This document shows positions 14,218 to 37,056 of a stretch of DNA of 64,000 bases, piece by piece. Below the pieces are notes generated by a model, which worked only from the letters and a program-made list of their open reading frames with translations, searched no databases and was not told where the DNA came from. The stretch covers positions 8,756 through 72,755 of the forward strand of contig CALXRP010000007.1 of the NCBI GenBank assembly GCA_944390885.1, given 5' to 3'. The translations under genes were made by a program, and so were the position numbers. Source of the stretch: an uncultured Alphaproteobacteria bacterium. Lineage in GTDB: Bacteria > Pseudomonadota > Alphaproteobacteria > RF32 > CAG-239. Each line of letters begins with the position of its first letter. The stretch's first letter is position 1.

Positions 14218-14853
14218 TTACATAAATTTCGTAACCGCAATAACTTTTCCACACACCTTTATCTGATCCGGATTATTGACCGACAGCGGCGGATAAAGCG
14301 GATTATCGGAAGAAATCAGCGCGGAATTGTTAAAAATATCAAAGCGAATGCGCTTAACCAGCAGCTCTTGCCGGATGCAGAAAAGATAAAGCCCGTCGCT
14401 TTCCGGGGAGGTAACCGAGATATCCACCCAGATAACGTCCTGGTCATTGATTGTCGGCTGCATACTGTCTCCGTAAATTGATAAAATCTTTATTTTATCG
14501 GGAGATATGTTTTTAAGTTGAGGAAAAAGATTAACATTTGCCAGCTGATGCCCGATAACTTTCGGCGTCAGGATATTGCCGTTTTCGGCAACGGATTCCC
14601 GCGCGTCAATAATTTCAATCATCGAAACGCCCGCCGGACTAAACGCATAGGGCGAAACCTGTCCGAATTCGGATTTTACGACATTATCAAGCGTTGTTCC
14701 GAACAAATCGGCAATTTTTTGTGCCATTTCGCTTTTGAGGGAAATATTGCCGTTCTCAATTTTGGTCATGGTCGATTGGGTAACGCCAACGGCCTCGGCA
14801 AGCTGTGTAACGGTTTTATGATGCATTTTGCGCAGATTTTTAATATTGTTCAT
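14218..14853 (-). CDS. CI/LexA-type phage repressor (XRE HTH plus S24 peptidase domain)
   Basis: The N-terminal HTH is TVTQLAEAVGVTQSTMTKIENG. The C-terminal part has the S24 catalytic Ser (GDSMQPTI) and Lys (LLVKRIRF). Confidence 0.85.
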   Translation of the reverse strand: MNNIKNLRKMHHKTVTQLAEAVGVTQSTMTKIENGNISLKSEMAQKIADLFGTTLDNVVKSEFGQVSPYAFSPAGVSMIEIIDARESVAENGNILTPKVIGHQLANVNLFPQLKNISPDKIKILSIYGDSMQPTINDQDVIWVDISVTSPESDGLYLFCIRQELLVKRIRFDIFNNSALISSDNPLYPPLSVNNPDQIKVCGKVIAVTKFM

Positions 14854-18854: not shown

Positions 18855-19718
18855 ATGAATGAAGAAAGCAAAGCAACACAAAAATGTATACAGGATCTAA
18901 TGGAAGGCAGAGCCTTATTAAGACGAGGTTATCGACGTCCGGGACAGTCAGAATATTATTATCTGACCAAAAATTTTGATGACAGTTATAATCAGATAGA
19001 TGTTCCTGATGATTTCGGCCGTCAGTGGTTCGGAAAGACACTACCAGATAACTTTCAAAATGATTATAAAATAACAAAAGACATGAATGAACATCCAGAA
19101 AAATATTATATTTGGTATACAATGAGCGACAACAAAGTTAGAAGTTTACATGCTGAACGGCATGGAAAAATTTTTAGATGGGATACACCACCGCAAGGAG
19201 GACATCCGGGAGAAGATTATAATTGCAGATGTTTGGCAATCCCATATAAACCACAGTATGATCAAAAAAAATTTTTAAATGATCTAATAAAGAATATTGA
19301 TGAAACGCAGGGAAAAATTGATTTATTTAACGCAGAAATAGCTACAATGGAAAAATGGATTAAAAATATTAGGGAAGAAAAAATTAAAATTTATAAAAAA
19401 ATTCAAAAAAGTTCTTTAGAAGGATTAAAGAATGGCATAGAAGGAGCAAACGAAAATGGCGGAATTGTAGCGGAAATTGCTGGAAAAATTAAAAATAATC
19501 CATATTTAGATTTTTATAATTTATTAGCCGGAAGAACAAGTGGAATGTTTGCAACAACGTTAGCCGAATATAATAGTCAAAAAAGACAATTACTTCAATT
19601 ATCTCAAGATGAAAAAATTATAGCAGGCCAAATTGAAAAAAGAAAAGACGCCGTATCTGATATGCGAAAGGAAATGCACAAAATGAAACAGTATATGGAA
19701 TTAATTAATGCTTTTTAA
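18855..19718 (+). CDS. Mu F / SPP1 gp7-like minor-head-domain protein with an unrelated coiled-coil C-terminal half
   Basis: WYTMSDNKVRSLHAERHGKIFRWDTPPQGGHPGEDYNCRCLAIPY matches the conserved core of the Phage_Mu_F domain. The remaining ~150 aa are K/E/I-rich. The gene is AT-rich. Confidence 0.7.
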   Translation: MNEESKATQKCIQDLMEGRALLRRGYRRPGQSEYYYLTKNFDDSYNQIDVPDDFGRQWFGKTLPDNFQNDYKITKDMNEHPEKYYIWYTMSDNKVRSLHAERHGKIFRWDTPPQGGHPGEDYNCRCLAIPYKPQYDQKKFLNDLIKNIDETQGKIDLFNAEIATMEKWIKNIREEKIKIYKKIQKSSLEGLKNGIEGANENGGIVAEIAGKIKNNPYLDFYNLLAGRTSGMFATTLAEYNSQKRQLLQLSQDEKIIAGQIEKRKDAVSDMRKEMHKMKQYMELINAF

Positions 19719-31374: not shown

Positions 31375-32088
31375 ATGAAGAATATGCTTGAAATCTGCCG
31401 TGAGGCGGCAAGCCTTGTTGCGGCCCAAAAGCCGGAAGACTTGTTTAATGAAGATTCCCAACAGGAGGCTGTTTTCCTGAGCGTTGCCAAAGACACTTTA
31501 GACAGCCTGCTGCGCTATGGTGATTGGCAGGAACTGACCAAAGAGGGCGTTTTGCGCACTTCCGGCGGCCGCACTTCTTATCTTATCAAACAGTTCTGCC
31601 CCGATTTTTATTCTATATTGAATAATACGGTCTATATCAAAGACAGCGCGGAAAAAGTTATCGGCGCCATCACTCCGCAGGATTGGATGCGTGAAAAATA
31701 TTTCAACTGCCCCGGTGCCGGTCTGAAGTTCAAAATCCAAAACGGCATGATCAAGTTTCTGACCCCGCCGCCGGACGGGATTAAGATTGTTTTTCAGTAC
31801 CGCTCGTCAAACATTGTGTTTGATGCAGCAAACGGCTATGAGGAAAAATCCGAACTGACCAAAAATACCGATGTGCCGATTTTTGATGAATTTTTGGTCA
31901 AAAAAGGCATCGTCTGGCGCTGGAACCGGCGCAACGGTATGCCGTATGAAGAAGAATTTAACGAATACGAGCGCGAAGTCAAAGCCAAATTCGGCAGCGG
32001 CCTGGCCTCCCGCGATATTAACCTTGCCGGTATGGTTTTTGATCCGGCGGCAGAAGGAGTATATGTCAATGCAGCAAAGAACAATTAA
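31375..32088 (+). CDS. virion structural protein (putative adaptor or tail component)
   Basis: 237 aa with an AAGGAGAAAA RBS. This is where backbone-like composition resumes. It overlaps the next gene. Confidence 0.5.
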   Translation: MKNMLEICREAASLVAAQKPEDLFNEDSQQEAVFLSVAKDTLDSLLRYGDWQELTKEGVLRTSGGRTSYLIKQFCPDFYSILNNTVYIKDSAEKVIGAITPQDWMREKYFNCPGAGLKFKIQNGMIKFLTPPPDGIKIVFQYRSSNIVFDAANGYEEKSELTKNTDVPIFDEFLVKKGIVWRWNRRNGMPYEEEFNEYEREVKAKFGSGLASRDINLAGMVFDPAAEGVYVNAAKNN

Positions 32089-33622
32089 CCGCAGCGCCAA
32101 ATCGGTCAACTACACGCTGCCCAGCCCGATTGGCGGATTAAACGCCCGCGACAGCCTGGATTTGATGTCAGAAACCGATGCCGTCGTCATGGACAATTAT
32201 CTCCCGCTGGATACCAAAGTTGCTTTGCGCCGCGGTTATGTCCGTTATGCGGCGCTGGATGGAAAAGTCCGGACGCTGGCGGAATACAAATTGCCCGATG
32301 AAAACCGCTTTTTGGCTTTTGCCGGTTCCACAGTTTATAATATTTCTTCCAAGGCTGCCATAAAGGATTATAAAAAAGATTTCGGCGAAGGGCGCTGGCA
32401 GTATTGCCAGTTCAAAAACCGCCTGCTGCTGGTCAACGGATATGACAAGCCGCAGACGTTTTATGTTGATGACAACGGCGACGAACATTTTGAAGAAGCC
32501 TCTTTTTCCGGCACCAATTTGCTGCCGCAACGGCTGATTAACGTTTGTACGTCGCACCAGCGGCTTTTCTTTGTCGAGAAAGGCACGCTCAATGCCTGGT
32601 ATTCCGAGGGTGTGGGAGAAGTGCAGGGAACCTTGGTCAAATTTGACCTTTCAACAATTTTTCGCGACGGCGGAGAACTTGTGGCAATCGCCTCCTGGAC
32701 ACAAGACGGCGGGCAGGGAATTGACGACCTGACGGTTTTTATCACGTCGGAAGGCGAAGCGGCCGTTTACCGCGGTTCTGACCCCGGAGATGCCGACGAC
32801 TGGGAGTTAAAAGGCGTTTTCCGGATGAGCCGGCCGATAGGCTATCGCTGCCTTTTGCCTTATCAGGGAGATGTGGTCATTATATCGGAAGACGGGTATA
32901 TTCCGCTGTCAAAGGCGCTGCCGATGGAGCAGGCCAATGCGTCTCAGATTGCCTTTTCCGATAAAATCCGGGGCTTGGTGCTGGACAGAACCAGAAACAA
33001 CAAGGGAAAAGAGGGCTGGCAGGGGATTATCTACGGCCGCGGCGGATATGCTTTGTTTAACGTTCCGGTCAACCAGCAGTTTGAACAGCACGTTATCAAT
33101 ACCAATACCGGCGCCTGGTGCCGTTTTACCAATATCCGCGCCTTGTGCTGGGGGCTGTTTCAGGGGCGCCTGTATTTCGGCGGGGAAGACGGCGTCTATC
33201 TGTTTGACGAAGGCTATTCGGACAATAAAGTCCATATCTTTGGCAAAATAGCTCAGGCCTATACAAATCTCGGTAATGGAAATTTGAAGAAAATTCAAAT
33301 GATTAATCCGCGTACAAAGTCAAGCACCAAATATGCGTTGGTTGTTTATGCCAATGTGGATTTTGATGACAAAGATAAGGCCTATGCCGAAAATATCGGT
33401 TATTCCGGTGTGACCAAATGGAACACTGCGGCCTGGAGCAGCCTGGACAATCCGATCGGCACCAAATGGGCAACGCTGAAAGGAAAAATCCGCAGCCAGT
33501 GGATTGGCTGTTCGGCAACCGGCTTCAAAATCAGCCTTGTTTTTCAGACCAAAACCAGGGGAAACCTGATTGAATGGTATGATACCGGTTTTCGTTACGA
33601 GTCCGGCAGCGGTATCTTATAA
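32063..33622 (+). CDS. virion structural protein (putative tail component)
   Basis: ATG at 32063 (MSMQQRTINRS...) with a GAAGGAG RBS gives 519 aa. The 31871 extension lies inside the previous gene and was rejected. Confidence 0.55.
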   Translation: MSMQQRTINRSAKSVNYTLPSPIGGLNARDSLDLMSETDAVVMDNYLPLDTKVALRRGYVRYAALDGKVRTLAEYKLPDENRFLAFAGSTVYNISSKAAIKDYKKDFGEGRWQYCQFKNRLLLVNGYDKPQTFYVDDNGDEHFEEASFSGTNLLPQRLINVCTSHQRLFFVEKGTLNAWYSEGVGEVQGTLVKFDLSTIFRDGGELVAIASWTQDGGQGIDDLTVFITSEGEAAVYRGSDPGDADDWELKGVFRMSRPIGYRCLLPYQGDVVIISEDGYIPLSKALPMEQANASQIAFSDKIRGLVLDRTRNNKGKEGWQGIIYGRGGYALFNVPVNQQFEQHVINTNTGAWCRFTNIRALCWGLFQGRLYFGGEDGVYLFDEGYSDNKVHIFGKIAQAYTNLGNGNLKKIQMINPRTKSSTKYALVVYANVDFDDKDKAYAENIGYSGVTKWNTAAWSSLDNPIGTKWATLKGKIRSQWIGCSATGFKISLVFQTKTRGNLIEWYDTGFRYESGSGIL

Positions 33623-33635
33623 AAGGAGAAAATCC

Positions 33636-34055
33636 ATGGAAACGGAAATCATCCACGATGAATGCGGCGTCATTAAAGACTGGGTTTGCTTTGGTTTGGG
33701 AGAAGATACCCAATGGTGCGGAGAAAATTATACCTGCGGTTTTTCCCGGAACGGCAAAATGATCGGCGGACTGATTTTTCATGACTACCGCAAAAATACA
33801 GATGTCTGGTGGACAATCTTCAGCACGGATAAACGCTGGTGTACCAAAAGGGTGCTGAAATACATTTTCGGCGTCGCTTTTAAAGATTTGCATTGCCAAA
33901 GAATAAGCCTGATGGTCGCGGACGATAACCTGCCTTGCCTGAATTTTGTCAGAAAGCTTGGCTTTCGCGAAGAAGGAAGATTGCGGGCTTATCGAGAAAA
34001 CGGCGGGGATTGCATTCTTTTCGGTATGTTAAAAAGGGAATGCCGTTATTTGTAA
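33636..34055 (+). CDS. GNAT-family N-acetyltransferase
   Basis: ATG at 33636 after an AAAGGAGAAAA RBS. RISLMVADDNLPCLNFVRKLGFREEGRLR is a typical GNAT motif A / beta4-alpha3 region. Confidence 0.7.
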   Translation: METEIIHDECGVIKDWVCFGLGEDTQWCGENYTCGFSRNGKMIGGLIFHDYRKNTDVWWTIFSTDKRWCTKRVLKYIFGVAFKDLHCQRISLMVADDNLPCLNFVRKLGFREEGRLRAYRENGGDCILFGMLKRECRYL

Positions 34056-34086
34056 CAGCACCATAAACGGGGGGAGGGTGAAAGCC

Positions 34087-34179
34087 TTCCTCTTTTTTTA
34101 TGCCGACAATCCGGCGCCATAATTTTATTACAAATCATAAAAGGAGAAAATAAATGAGTAAAAGCATCGGAAAACTGCT
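34087..34179 (+). repeat. direct repeat copy 1 (terminator tail, RBS, first 26 nt of CDS), left flank of cassette 4
   Basis: A 93-bp segment, ttcctctttttttatgccg(a/g)caatccggcgccataattttattacaaatcataaaaggagaaaataaatgagtaaaagcatcggaaaactgct, that recurs at 36117..36209 with 1 mismatch. Confidence 0.95.
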
Positions 34180-34903
34180 TGGTGGTAAATATGAGCCAAT
34201 GCCGATTGAGAACAATTTTAACAAAAATCGGCAGGTAAATTATTTTGAACTATTCGGGAAAAATGAACAATCTTACATTGAACCGACACCGGCCTGGGGA
34301 CAGTCATTATATCAAGAACAAAATATATCATACATACCACAAGAGAGAAGAAACACTGAATATTTTCCTTCTCGTTTTGAAAAATTTGTTAGAAATTTAA
34401 AGAGCCCAGAAGTTGAAGGGATAGGATATGAAGATAACTTAGCGAAAATAGATCAAAGGACGCATACTGGAATTATACAGCCGACGTTAAATCGTTTTTT
34501 AAGGGCTCATCCGCACTATAGAGAGACATTTCCTAACGATATAAAAGATTTAACTCAACATCATATTGATATCATTTATAAAAACGATTACTACGATGCA
34601 TATCGAATAAATGAAATTCAAAATGAAAAGTTGGCGGAAACAATGTTTGATAGCTATGTCAATCATAGTCCGAAGGATATTACAAAATGGCTTCAAGAAG
34701 GGATTAATCTTTATAGTCATAATACTGTAAGTGAAGACGGTATTTTGGGGAGTCAAACAATAAATAGTTTAAATTATATTGATGAAAATACAGTTGCTTT
34801 GATTAATAATTATGTTCTAGAAAAAAGAATTGAAGAGGCCAAACAAAAAAGACCAAACTATAGAGGCCTAATTCCAAGAATCAACAGATTAAGAATGGAA
34901 TAA
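34154..34903 (+). CDS. GH108-like muramidase with PG_binding_3-like C-terminal domain (divergent); N-terminal 11 aa shared with the gene at 36184
   Basis: VEGIGYEDN...THTGIIQPTL...IKDLTQHHIDIIYKNDYYDAYRINEI...MFDSYVNHSP...SEDGILGSQTINSLN follows the GH108 (hEGGy..., GIt..tl, Y...yw) plus DGiiGpkT pattern. MSKSIGKLLGG comes from the duplication. Confidence 0.6.
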   Translation: MSKSIGKLLGGKYEPMPIENNFNKNRQVNYFELFGKNEQSYIEPTPAWGQSLYQEQNISYIPQERRNTEYFPSRFEKFVRNLKSPEVEGIGYEDNLAKIDQRTHTGIIQPTLNRFLRAHPHYRETFPNDIKDLTQHHIDIIYKNDYYDAYRINEIQNEKLAETMFDSYVNHSPKDITKWLQEGINLYSHNTVSEDGILGSQTINSLNYIDENTVALINNYVLEKRIEEAKQKRPNYRGLIPRINRLRME

Positions 34904-34950
34904 AGCTTATCAAAAAGTTAATACAAGATGCGTTTGAAGTAATTTTTTAT

Positions 34951-35412
34951 CTAGAACGCATCTTGGTTTTTTTGTAAATCAAGCAAGGCACCTAATATTT
35001 TTTCTTGAAATTTGAACCAATCACCGCGATTAAATATTTGTTGCATTGTGCCACAAGACGGAATGCAATATTTGTTGTCATTTCTTAAATCCCAATAAAA
35101 ATCAAGAATCTGCTGACGAATTGCATTATATCTTGCCGTCATGGCTGCTTGCGTTTCCTGAGTAAATTCGGAATCAAGAAGCTGGTATATCTGTTGATCC
35201 ATACACTCATTTGCCTTTATTCCAGCCGAAATATTGCCAGTCGTAGATGTCGGATTGTTTTCAAAAGCTTTTTCCCAACATTGAAAACTAATCTGAGCGG
35301 CTTGCTTTTCACCGTAACTTAAAATTTTGTCCTCTTCTTGCATGTTACAACAATTAAGAAGAAGTAACACCGCTAAAATACGCAAGATATTTTTGTTCAT
35401 TTTTATCCTCAA
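34951..35412 (-). CDS. secreted or lipid-anchored Cys-containing protein
   Basis: 153 aa (or start at 35400, MNKNILRILAVLLLLNCC). It has a signal sequence and several Cys. The organisation is loosely LprI/DUF1311-like, a weak match. Confidence 0.5.
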   Translation of the reverse strand: MRIKMNKNILRILAVLLLLNCCNMQEEDKILSYGEKQAAQISFQCWEKAFENNPTSTTGNISAGIKANECMDQQIYQLLDSEFTQETQAAMTARYNAIRQQILDFYWDLRNDNKYCIPSCGTMQQIFNRGDWFKFQEKILGALLDLQKNQDAF

Positions 35413-35537
35413 ATTAACTTGCTAAAATCTACTATTCTAATATAATAACAGCAAAAGTTTAATTAAATGCAAATGTCATAATAGTTTGGATATTAAATTT
35501 TTATAAGGAAATAATATGAGTGCAATAGGGGATAATC

Positions 35538-35792
35538 ATGCCATCAATTATTCACTGGATAATCTGGGTATTACTGTTAGTACATATATTTCAGAACATT
35601 TTAAAACGGTATAAATTAAAAAATCCGGAAGTCTGGGCAAACATTTTTTCATTACTGACCTGCGGTATAATCTTCGGCTGCCTAAGCCCGACTTTTTCTT
35701 TTGGTTTTTTGTACGGGGTGGTTGGTGCGGTTGTTCCGAGTATGTTCCGTTTTACGGCCAACAAAAAGAGTGATAAAAATGCAGATAATTAA
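35538..35792 (+). CDS. small membrane protein (holin-sized)
   Basis: 84 aa with 2-3 hydrophobic segments and a basic C-terminal tail. Confidence 0.5.
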   Translation: MPSIIHWIIWVLLLVHIFQNILKRYKLKNPEVWANIFSLLTCGIIFGCLSPTFSFGFLYGVVGAVVPSMFRFTANKKSDKNADN

Positions 35793-36075
35793 AGAAATAG
35801 CAAGTTTTTGGAGCTTTGGGCTGCTGATTAGTTTTTTATTTGAAGCAACGTTGCTGATATTTATGCTGCAGCGGATTTTTCAATATTTTATTTCAGATTC
35901 GGCCAGGCTGTACAAAACGCTGACCATTTTAACGACGCCGTTTTTAATCGTCTATATATACGATCCCCGTTTTTTGCTTATTCCGTATAGTATAGAAACG
36001 GCATTTCTGTTTGTCATCCCGCTGACAATAATCTTAAAACCGCTTGCCGTTTTCTGTGATAAAGAAGTAAAATAA
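35779..36075 (+). CDS. small membrane protein (holin-sized)
   Basis: ATG at 35779 overlaps the previous stop. 98 aa with about 3 hydrophobic segments. Confidence 0.5.
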   Translation: MQIIKEIASFWSFGLLISFLFEATLLIFMLQRIFQYFISDSARLYKTLTILTTPFLIVYIYDPRFLLIPYSIETAFLFVIPLTIILKPLAVFCDKEVK

Positions 36076-36116
36076 CAGAACATAGGTTCGATTTCATAGA
36101 GGAAAGATGTTTATCT

Positions 36117-36209
36117 TTCCTCTTTTTTTATGCCGGCAATCCGGCGCCATAATTTTATTACAAATCATAAAAGGAGAAAATAAATGAGTAAAAGCATCGG
36201 AAAACTGCT
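36117..36209 (+). repeat. direct repeat copy 2, right flank of cassette 4
   Basis: See 34087..34179. It is preceded by the perfect terminator hairpin GAGGAAAGAT-GTTT-ATCTTTCCTC plus a T-run. Confidence 0.95.
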
Positions 36210-37056
36210 CGGGGGCGGCGGCGCCAGCACGTCGATGTACGCTTCCGAACGGGAATACTTGAATTATCTCAATAATAAAGACACGTCTTTGGTTGACAAT
36301 ACACTCAACAATTTGAACCAAAGCGCCTACAATTTATCGCAGACGCTGAGCAGCCGGCCGGATTATGTTTATTCGGTAGATGCTTCGGATGCGGCCCGGC
36401 AGCGGGCAGAAAATGCAACATATAATTCATATGTCAGCAGGTTGACGCCGCAATTTGAGCAACAGCAACGCCAACTGGAAACCCGTCTGCAAAACCAGGG
36501 CTTAAGTGTAGGCAGCGAAGCTTATCAAAATGCCATGAACTCAATGTATCAGCAACAAAATGATGCTCTGAACCAGGCTGCTTATAACAGCGTTTTACAA
36601 GGACAACAGGCTTTTAGCAACAGCCTGTCGGATTCCATTCGGGCCGGAAATTTCTCAAATGCCGCCCGGCAGTATCCGGTAAACGAAATCTTGCAGTTAA
36701 TATCCAATTCAATGAGCGGCGATGATGTGGCCCTGGCAAAATATCAAGCTCAGTTGGGAGCAGATTCCCGCATTGCTCAGAACAAAGCCGCAAATTCGGC
36801 CGGTCAATATGCCCTGGGTAATCAGTTTCTGAGCGGAGCGGCCATGGCAATGTTCTCTGATGCCAGAGTGAAGGAAAACATCGTTCCGGTCGGCAGATTG
36901 GATAACGGCCTGACCGTATATTTGTTCAACTATATCGGCGAAGAGATTCCGCAAATCGGGCTGATTGCGCAAGAAGTCGCGGAATACCGCCCGGAGGCCG
37001 TCATGCAGGACGAATACGGCTTGCTGCATGTCAATTATGCTCTGGCCGCAGCTTAA
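36184..37056 (+). CDS. fibre/needle-like virion protein with C-terminal intramolecular chaperone (peptidase S74) domain
   Basis: The body is Q/N/S-rich. The C-terminus, SDARVKENIVPVGRLDNGLTVYLFNY...IGLIAQEVAEYRPEAV, is the hallmark S74 auto-cleaving chaperone motif (SDxRxKxNI). Confidence 0.75.
   Translation: MSKSIGKLLGGGGASTSMYASEREYLNYLNNKDTSLVDNTLNNLNQSAYNLSQTLSSRPDYVYSVDASDAARQRAENATYNSYVSRLTPQFEQQQRQLETRLQNQGLSVGSEAYQNAMNSMYQQQNDALNQAAYNSVLQGQQAFSNSLSDSIRAGNFSNAARQYPVNEILQLISNSMSGDDVALAKYQAQLGADSRIAQNKAANSAGQYALGNQFLSGAAMAMFSDARVKENIVPVGRLDNGLTVYLFNYIGEEIPQIGLIAQEVAEYRPEAVMQDEYGLLHVNYALAAA

Follow-up and report, generated by a model that had tools for sequence, protein, structure and literature searches.

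Toxins that attack peptidoglycan, such as pesticin, colicin M, and the Tge effectors of type VI secretion systems, are harmless in the cytoplasm of the producing cell and are neutralized in the periplasm by dedicated immunity proteins, namely Pim, Cmi, and Tgi, respectively. Temperate phages carry toxins of another kind, the MuF polymorphic toxins (Zhang et al. 2012, PMC3482391; Jamet et al. 2017, PMC5576092), and contact-dependent inhibition (CDI) and Rhs loci, as far as the work of Poole et al. (2011) is relayed in PMC5576092, contain orphan toxin-immunity cassettes. Muramidases of glycoside hydrolase family 108 (GH108) are known in other roles: proteins that join GH108 to a PG_binding_3 domain act as phage endolysins of the N4 gp61 type, e.g., ElyA1 and ElyA2 (PMC7188820), and in Brucella abortus the GH108 muramidase SagA has an adjacent periplasmic partner, PhiA, which was proposed as its inhibitor but showed no inhibition of SagA in vitro (PMC8334348). 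Here we describe a block of genes in a prophage of an uncultured gut alphaproteobacterium, contained in a stretch of 64,000 nucleotides from contig C7 of a 1.7-Mb genome that is called the window in its full length hereafter. The block lies between the gene of a GNAT acetyltransferase and that of a virion structural protein with a C-terminal Peptidase_S74 chaperone (the S74 gene), and it encodes a GH108 protein (the effector), an exported protein with several cysteines (the Cys protein), and two small membrane proteins, TM84 and TM98. With a probability of about two in three, we consider it a phage-borne polymorphic effector/immunity array with a GH108 payload, held in a slot between the GNAT and S74 genes of a small podovirus-like prophage. 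What is said below about function is drawn from sequence, structure prediction, and synteny.

The variability of the slot became evident when the same region was compared among seven related prophages, metagenomic contigs, and one fecal phage record (MT835830.1). The site is empty in three distant relatives (L027, L028, and MT835830.1), where the GNAT and S74 genes lie directly side by side and the large tail-region protein is 58-69% identical to that of the present prophage. It is filled in all six same-genus prophages that are readable there, and the contents, which in every case are followed by the S74 gene, differ. The window prophage (WIN) and L022, 98.8% identical to it, hold the GH108 cassette; L026 holds a putative 174-aa toxin, TM91, and TM96; L025 holds the 174-aa toxin, a pair of small membrane proteins (TM pair), the Cys protein, TM114, TM116, TM83, and TM98; L024 and the metagenomic L048 hold a 270-aa toxin, TM114, TM116, a TM pair, the Cys protein, TM84, and TM98; and L023 holds a 146-aa toxin, a TM pair, an orphan C-terminal fragment of the 270-aa toxin with TM114/TM116, TM84, and a truncated TM98. 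On the metagenomic contig L047, a TM83/TM98 pair is followed by a leader-headed 167-aa toxin, P0004, and then by a TM84 near-identical to that of the window. The first genes of L023-L026, L047, and L048 all begin with MSKSIGK and an N-region and run into unrelated C-termini from codon ~60-62; their likeness to the window effector, both in DNA and in protein, stops at ~34332-34340 (codon 60-62), at an SY[IL]P motif. Another protein, P0001, carries the GH108 payload (94% identical) on the variant of the N-region that heads the 174-aa toxin of L026. The effector gene can thus be described as an S74-derived leader, a disordered N-region of ~50 residues, and what would be an exchangeable C-terminal payload.

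The partners co-vary with the payloads: the 146- and 174-aa toxins are accompanied by a TM~90/TM~94 pair (three loci), the 270-aa toxin by TM114/TM116, the 167-aa toxin by TM84 of the WIN type, and GH108 by the Cys protein. A constant N-terminal part combined with unrelated C-terminal domains among close relatives is what defines polymorphic toxins according to Zhang et al. (2012), and this is found here; the adjacent, co-varying immunity gene and the orphan cassettes that belong to the same definition are found by synteny only. Constant heads, exchangeable tips, partners that follow the tips, and orphan tips and partners are, taken together, hallmarks of polymorphic toxin loci. The payloads other than GH108 (174 aa in L025/L026, 146 aa in L023, 167 aa in P0004, and 270 aa in L024) share a motif, F.[DN]GF.NG ... 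GG.Y, which occurs twice in the 270-aa protein. The tail of the 174-aa payload (DKYYENAKLAGTYEAAKK) resembled serum amyloid A by eye only, and Pfam gave no match, so that this payload is left unassigned, like the others of 146, 167, and 270 aa.

The block is bracketed by a direct repeat of 99 nt with three mismatches (96/99 positions equal). The first-pass annotation had described a 93-bp duplication with one mismatch, which is the core of this repeat, and the mismatch is A/G at 34106/36136. Ten repeat families of at least 40 nt exist in the window, of which this is one; a repeat of such length cannot have originated by chance within 64 kb. The composition proposed earlier is confirmed by sequence and folding, with a small hairpin in addition: the repeat starts with the 3' arm and T-run of an intrinsic terminator, continues with the hairpin (GCCG-N-CGGC) and the ribosome-binding site (RBS) AAAGGAGAAAA, and ends with the ATG and 26-30 nt of coding sequence, which gives the GH108 and S74 genes the common start MSKSIGKLLGG. 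The likeness between the copies ends sharply past codon 11 of both open reading frames (ORFs), and the 5' arms of the two terminators differ while their folding energies are equal. The DNA between the repeats is AT-rich, as had been noticed, with a GC content of 0.334 over 1.9 kb compared with 0.491 and 0.468 in the flanks.

Both copies are present in every filled relative, and in L047 the same element precedes the internal toxin gene as well, not the first gene only; the repeat is a leader heading every toxin gene rather than a one-off insertion scar. The 11 codons are native to the virion gene because the S74 genes of the distant empty sites already start in this manner (MSKSIGKLFGAG or MSKSLG in L027/L028 and MSNSFGGG in MT835830.1), and other S74 homologs, down to 50% identity, begin with MSKSIGKVF. 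The earlier proposal that the effector gene was grafted with the first 11 codons of the downstream gene is therefore right in its direction, while the graft is not a single event. Leader copies are 91-97% alike within a genome clade and 75-84% alike between clades (16-25% difference), and a clade-specific spacer is carried by both copies of a locus; this indicates concerted evolution, through either ongoing recombination between the copies or exchange of whole arrays. The small hairpin, which lies directly after the terminator T-runs (34101-34116 and 36131-36146; TGCCGaCAATCCGGCG and TGCCGGCAATCCGGCG), is conserved in every leader copy of all relatives, with the spacer around it differing by clade, and may serve in regulation or antitermination or be bound by a protein. 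We propose that the leader copies would provide inserted genes with the RBS and first codons of a late virion gene and would serve as the homology by which cassettes are inserted, swapped, or lost through recombination. If two phage genomes underwent unequal crossing-over at their leader copies, cassettes would be added, swapped, or deleted, and the bracket would be restored each time.

The effector consists of residues 1-11, which match the S74 protein, a semi-constant part from residue 12 to ~62, and a muramidase of the GH108 plus PG-binding type at ~73-249. Both domains had been suggested from the sequence, and the GH108 assignment holds: PF05838 matches residues 101-171 with 41.4 bits (cut-off, 21.2; E = 2.1e-10), phrog_315 (endolysin) matches with E = 8e-20, and NMB1012 is the match among Protein Data Bank (PDB) sequences (E = 7e-4). 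The PG_binding_3 profile (PF09374) stays below its threshold (13.4 bits; cut-off, 24.6), whereas the relatives in L054 exceed it (33.1 bits), and the Foldseek alignment of the effector covers entire two-domain templates (176-197 columns). In the AlphaFold2 (AF2) model, residues 110-249 have a predicted local distance difference test (pLDDT) score of ~88 or above, except for a single ten-residue block at about 75; disorder is predicted for residues 1-70 (pLDDT, ~30). The 14 best Foldseek matches in the PDB are GH108 chains only (2ikb, 2is5, 6v40, 6v3z, and 7dnp; prob 1.00; TMt 0.58-0.72), representing NMB1012, TtsA, Sen1395, and Brucella SagA. The catalytic residues of SagA are Glu17, Asp26, and Thr31 (PMC8334348), and the candidate counterparts in the effector are E88, D100, and T103, with a Glu-to-Thr spacing of 15 (expected, 14) and pLDDT below 50 at residues 86-94; Asp at T-3 is also found in P0002, the closest GH108 homolog, and in the second GH108 protein of the same genome. 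The latter domain (L021, G000:C1:171012-171551) lies in a 527-aa ORF, has the canonical HEGGY sequence, and is 32-34% identical to the effector; no member of the Cys-protein family is encoded nearby, and the only family match in the genome is the window copy.

No signal peptide, transmembrane, or hydrophobic segment was found in the effector (maximum KD19, 0.14). Its N-region of ~50 residues is rich in Y/N/Q/P/E; compared with the constant modules that the prophage has in its two other cassette arrays, it gave weak matches only (E = 0.004-0.2), so homology to them was rejected. A MuF (Phage_Mu_F) domain was not matched in the effector by Pfam or PHROG, nor was similarity seen to the MuF-core cassette protein encoded at 18855-19718 of the window. 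The GH108 payload, which carries no signal peptide, is predicted to cut peptidoglycan once it is in a periplasm.

The Cys protein is encoded convergently to the effector gene, has a signal peptide and 7 Cys, and thereby agrees with the earlier description of a convergent signal-peptide protein, as do the two small membrane proteins next to it. Few close relatives exist, and a profile search led to 120 representative clusters, mostly of 130-170 aa, with four nearly invariant Cys (C41, C66, C112, and C116), which probably form two disulfides, and an NKYCxPxCG motif. The AF2 model (pLDDT, 93.4) consists of the signal helix and a four-helix bundle. None of 46 family members matched lysozyme-inhibitor models of Pfam or NCBIfam at E<=0.01, and no other model matched consistently; the PDB search with the family profile found no solved structure, and Foldseek gave no match at E<1 in the PDB or at E<0.4 in BFVD. 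On the basis of these Pfam, NCBIfam, PDB sequence, and Foldseek results, assignment to LprI/DUF1311 or to MliC/PliC/PhiA was ruled out, and the protein belongs to a previously undescribed exported four-helix family.

This family is linked to GH108. Convergent pairs are seen in L029, L031, and L062; P0002 (L029), 47% identical to the effector, has a convergent Cys-protein homolog alongside, and the genes of the family members P0011 and P0019 each converge on one for GH108. Among 401 genomes across the class, the Cys-protein family occurs in 12, of which six also have GH108, and in all six a GH108 gene is located <1 kb from a family member, which accounts for 6/8 GH108 genes. The other six genomes have no GH108, and their Cys-protein genes are solitary, as are P0013 and P0015. 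Altogether, the family adjoins GH108 in nine independent contexts, about half of those examined, and several of the pairs include a 370-790-aa protein whose C-terminal domain is the GH108. The block of the Cys protein is 96% identical to that of L024/L025, compared with 77-81% for the prophage backbones, and L024/L025 retain the Cys protein without GH108; conservation above the backbone and retention without GH108 form the pattern expected of orphan immunity. An enzyme without an export signal and a partner with a signal peptide point to protection against an enzyme that arrives from outside. Most likely, the exported, disulfide-bonded Cys protein binds and blocks the muramidase in the periplasm of the lysogen and so confers immunity. 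A full-text literature search found no paper tying GH108 to an immunity protein. These results favor the second of the two functions considered at first, a peptidoglycan-targeting effector with periplasmic immunity, and extend it to a polymorphic slot.

Several loci outside the slot were noted in the course of this comparison. The chromosomal island L052 (G334:C2:6000-20000) encodes two long proteins that share the N-terminus MFYRKPPG.FIFGAGRPANP and a third whose start, MFFKPPGGGLFG, agrees with it more loosely; the C-termini of the three differ, one of them ends in GH108 beside a Cys-protein gene, and the genes are interleaved with those of ~290-aa membrane proteins. The island seems to hold a further polymorphic toxin family, one whose head is unrecognized. 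L053 (G054:C31:574-4903) encodes a 760-aa protein with GH108+PG_binding_3 at its C-terminal end, its gene converging on that of a Cys protein, and a 541-aa ORF nearby has a portal-like N-terminus by eye, a position that resembles that of a MuF toxin. The distant prophage L046 (G057:C1:88000-106000), whose modules are arranged as in the present prophage, has the order of GNAT, an S74-like gene, a 372-aa GH108 protein with a long P/N/Q/Y-rich N-part, and two convergent tandem Cys-protein genes, and a 508-aa minus-strand gene comes next; its GH108 gene sits downstream of the S74-like gene, not upstream. P0007, a 111-aa metagenomic predicted protein, has the N-terminus of ribosomal protein S13 (PF00416) followed by the 63 C-terminal residues of the Cys protein; a chimeric assembly or a rearrangement of the contig is the probable cause.

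TM84 and TM98 gave no match to holin, Pfam, PHROG, or PADLOC families, and the PADLOC search for anti-phage defense yielded nothing significant. They had been regarded as holin-sized proteins, and a holin function was rejected: besides the lack of a holin family match, the pair travels with toxins that are not muramidases. The TM84 ortholog of L047 directly follows the 167-aa toxin P0004, and TM84/TM98 are 35-41% identical (TM84, 38-41%) to the paralogous pairs that stand behind the 146- and 174-aa toxins. Upstream of the pair the alignment of the window with L025 skips over TM114 and TM116, and what is left there is a deletion scar, i.e., the 5' end (MSAIG...) of the 114-aa membrane-protein gene that is intact in relatives. 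From these sequence relationships we read TM84/TM98 as an orphan membrane immunity pair, retained against its cognate, the 167-residue payload of sister prophages. Upstream of the orthologous pair of L047 lies TTGACT-16-TATAAT, found by eye. Homology of TM84/TM98 to the other arrays of small membrane proteins in the window (29.3-31.1 and 19.7-21.0 kb) was sought and not found.

The features of the block and its borders are listed in Table 1. The S74 gene matches phrog_6121, which is labeled "virion structural protein," and its homologs in Brucella phage Tb-like podoviruses carry a structural-protein annotation. The prophage (window 14218-41445) looks very small, with a CI-like repressor at 14218-14853 and a large terminase, recognized by eye, following by 17.4 kb. 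When the tail region was compared with 50,697 phage records by Megablast, no match was obtained. Two ORFs of this region, at 31375-32088 (237-aa tail protein) and 31871-33622 (583 aa), overlap by 218 nt, and the likely real start of the second would give ~519 aa. This conserved 519/583-aa protein bears the sole other lysis label in the prophage, phrog_5107 "amidase," and has no Pfam amidase domain.

Table 1. Features of the slot and its borders (window coordinates).
Feature	Position	Strand	Basis or remark
GNAT acetyltransferase gene, left border, conserved in all relatives	33636..34055	+	Pfam Acetyltransf_4, phrog_4470
Intrinsic terminator 1; 3' arm opens leader copy 1	34069..34100 (stem 34069-34094 + T-run)	+	fold -23.2 kcal/mol
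Leader copy 1: terminator tail, hairpin 34101-34116, RBS, ATG, first 11 codons	34087..34185	+	repeat comparison
Effector gene, 249 aa	34154..34903	+	PF05838, phrog_315, AF2/Foldseek
Effector-gene terminator between the convergent genes: long hairpin + T-run, overlapping the 3' end of the Cys-protein gene	34924..34973	.	RNAfold of 34900-34990, -23.9 kcal/mol
Candidate immunity gene (Cys protein), exported four-helix protein	34951..35400 (149 aa; or 35412, 153 aa)	-	family profile, AF2
Sigma-70-like promoter match upstream of the TM pair	35419..35446	+	consensus match only
Deletion scar of the 114-aa membrane-protein gene	35494..35530	+	37 nt, 100% match to L023
TM84, 84 aa, small membrane protein, first of the pair	35538..35792	+	ORF; at least 2 hydrophobic spans
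TM98, 98 aa, small membrane protein, second of the pair, overlapping TM84	35779..36075	+	ORF; at least 2 hydrophobic spans
Intrinsic terminator 2; 3' arm opens leader copy 2	36098..36129 (stem 36098-36123)	+	fold -23.2 kcal/mol
Leader copy 2	36117..36215	+	repeat comparison
Virion structural gene with C-terminal Peptidase_S74 chaperone, 290 aa, right border	36184..37056	+	PF13884, phrog_6121/4287

Some observations weigh against the polymorphic array. The EGGY motif is altered to EGIGY in the effector, which shifts the catalytic Glu by one residue; because of this shift and of the low-confidence model at residues 86-94, muramidase activity is likely, not assured. The Pfam and PHROG scan of effector residues 1-90 gave no match and thus no recognized trafficking domain for delivery, whether that would be in or on virions or by release at lysis. 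About half of the members of the Cys-protein family that were examined have no GH108 neighbor, and the TTGCTA-16-TATAAT element that might drive expression of the membrane immunity genes in lysogens matches the consensus only. Among the prophage ORFs scanned, PHROGs recognized neither a replication gene nor an endolysin other than GH108. Lastly, P0002 follows a gene that weakly matches (E ~0.06) the PHROGs hit by the gene preceding the holin-like gene of this prophage, a position that means P0002 could be the endolysin in L029.

The last points bear on the first of the two functions considered at the outset, in which the block is the missing endolysin/holin module, captured by the phage, with TM84/TM98 as holin and antiholin and the Cys protein as a lysis regulator. 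Proteins combining GH108 and PG_binding_3-type domains are common endolysins, and the spanin-like cluster at 40.7-41.4 kb includes no endolysin. The block is situated 4.6 kb upstream of that cluster, however, and no conserved, non-duplicated lysis block emerged from the related prophages, where the site is either empty or variably filled: GH108 is absent from four of the six same-genus prophages, which have other payloads instead, and from the three distant relatives of the same late-gene order. The TM pair, moreover, accompanies toxins other than muramidases and has diverged paralogs within single arrays, and a partner in the periplasm that is conserved together with GH108 in six families is easier to reconcile with inhibition than with the timing of lysis. 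We therefore consider a lysis module to be the least probable of the explanations discussed here. Only slightly more credible is release in the manner of a bacteriocin, where the effector would be freed by phage lysis, the disordered N-region would act as a domain for outer-membrane translocation as in pesticin and colicin M, and lysogens would be protected by periplasmic immunity. The disordered N-terminus, the absence of a signal peptide, and the periplasmic immunity candidate agree with this explanation, and, to judge from the gene order, read-through of the terminator would let the effector gene, which points the same way as the late genes, be expressed along with them. But an N-region of 60 residues is too short for a receptor-binding domain, neither a TonB box nor a Tol box was seen (though no test for either was made), and the copying of the leader from a virion protein is left unexplained.

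The genes around the effector gene are virion genes, tail-tube-like on one side and that of a structural protein on the other, and this position raises the further possibility that the GH108 protein is a virion-borne entry enzyme that breaches the envelope like the muralytic internal proteins of podoviruses. Its partners would be superinfection blockers expressed by the lysogen, and the swapping would reflect an arms race of phage against phage. The disordered N-region and the N-terminus shared with a virion protein suit such a role; the partner genes, being convergent or behind a promoter-like consensus match, could be expressed in lysogeny; and a GH108 gene with two Cys-protein genes right after the S74-like gene in the distant prophage of G057, together with the pair beside the portal-like gene (by eye) in L053, provides parallels. 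Related phages without any gene at the site indicate, however, that it is not needed for infection, and GH108/Cys-protein pairs exist in chromosomal non-phage settings too, beside the dcw cluster in L054 and in the toxin island L052. An entry enzyme thus seems unlikely, although less so than the two alternatives above, and the polymorphic effector/immunity array is the explanation that we prefer.

If the preferred explanation is pushed further, the S74 N-terminus MSKSIGK... and the disordered region of ~50 residues might constitute a portable tag for virion loading or ejection, making the particle a delivery device for interchangeable envelope-degrading enzymes, including the muramidase and the payloads of sister phages with membrane-protein partners, while lysogens would be guarded by periplasmic or membrane antidotes. 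The slot would then be a tail-module counterpart of the MuF toxins, and the Cys proteins would be an all-alpha, disulfide-bonded family of GH108-specific inhibitors. We offer this extended proposal tentatively and regard it as doubtful. If the array does work as supposed, it would represent a second way, apart from MuF toxins, for temperate phages to carry swappable antibacterial weapons, and the carrier would be little beyond the first 11 codons and the upstream signals of a virion gene, serving also as a handle for recombination. The Cys protein would be a candidate specific inhibitor of GH108 muramidases, for which the sole inhibitor proposed so far, PhiA, failed in vitro. The GH108 family includes endolysins in antibacterial development as well as TtsA and SagA of pathogens, and the GH108/Cys-protein pair is small and soluble.

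Compared with the systems described at the beginning, the effector shares with the GH108 endolysins and with TtsA (6v40) the two-domain muramidase fold and its size (residues ~73-249), and it differs from them in its 70-residue disordered extension with a virion leader, its exported partner, its EGIGY sequence, and its lack of conservation among sister phages. SagA-PhiA is likewise an alphaproteobacterial GH108 protein with an adjacent periplasmic partner, and SagA (7dnp) is one of the fold matches; PhiA, however, is a beta-barrel of the MliC/PliC type, in contrast to the all-alpha four-helix Cys protein, and SagA is a membrane-anchored autolysin for type IV secretion system assembly and not itself a swappable cargo. 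As for pesticin, the colicin M family (PMC5821083), and Tge, their folds are T4-lysozyme-like, ColM, or GH-type rather than GH108, the fold of the immunity protein differs as well, and neither a TonB box nor type VI secretion genes were seen at the locus. With CDI/Rhs loci, insofar as PMC5576092 portrays them, the slot shares a fixed junction where tips are swapped, orphan toxin fragments that have been displaced, and an accumulation of orphan immunity genes; within the same portrayal, it is distinguished by its tiny carrier, its phage context, and a duplicated leader that restarts each cassette in place of a pre-toxin motif such as VENN. The likeness to MuF toxins lies in the location in a phage structural module, the constant N-part with an exchangeable C-terminal toxin, and the small partner ORFs, and MuF proteins have been proposed to travel with the particle. 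The slot cannot be counted among the MuF loci because it has no MuF domain: its constant part consists of 11 virion residues and ~50 disordered ones, and it belongs to the tail module, while MuF belongs to the packaging module. Its payload, moreover, would act in the periplasm, with an exported partner encoded convergently, whereas the reported MuF toxins are mostly nucleases and ADP-ribosyltransferases with cytoplasmic immunity.

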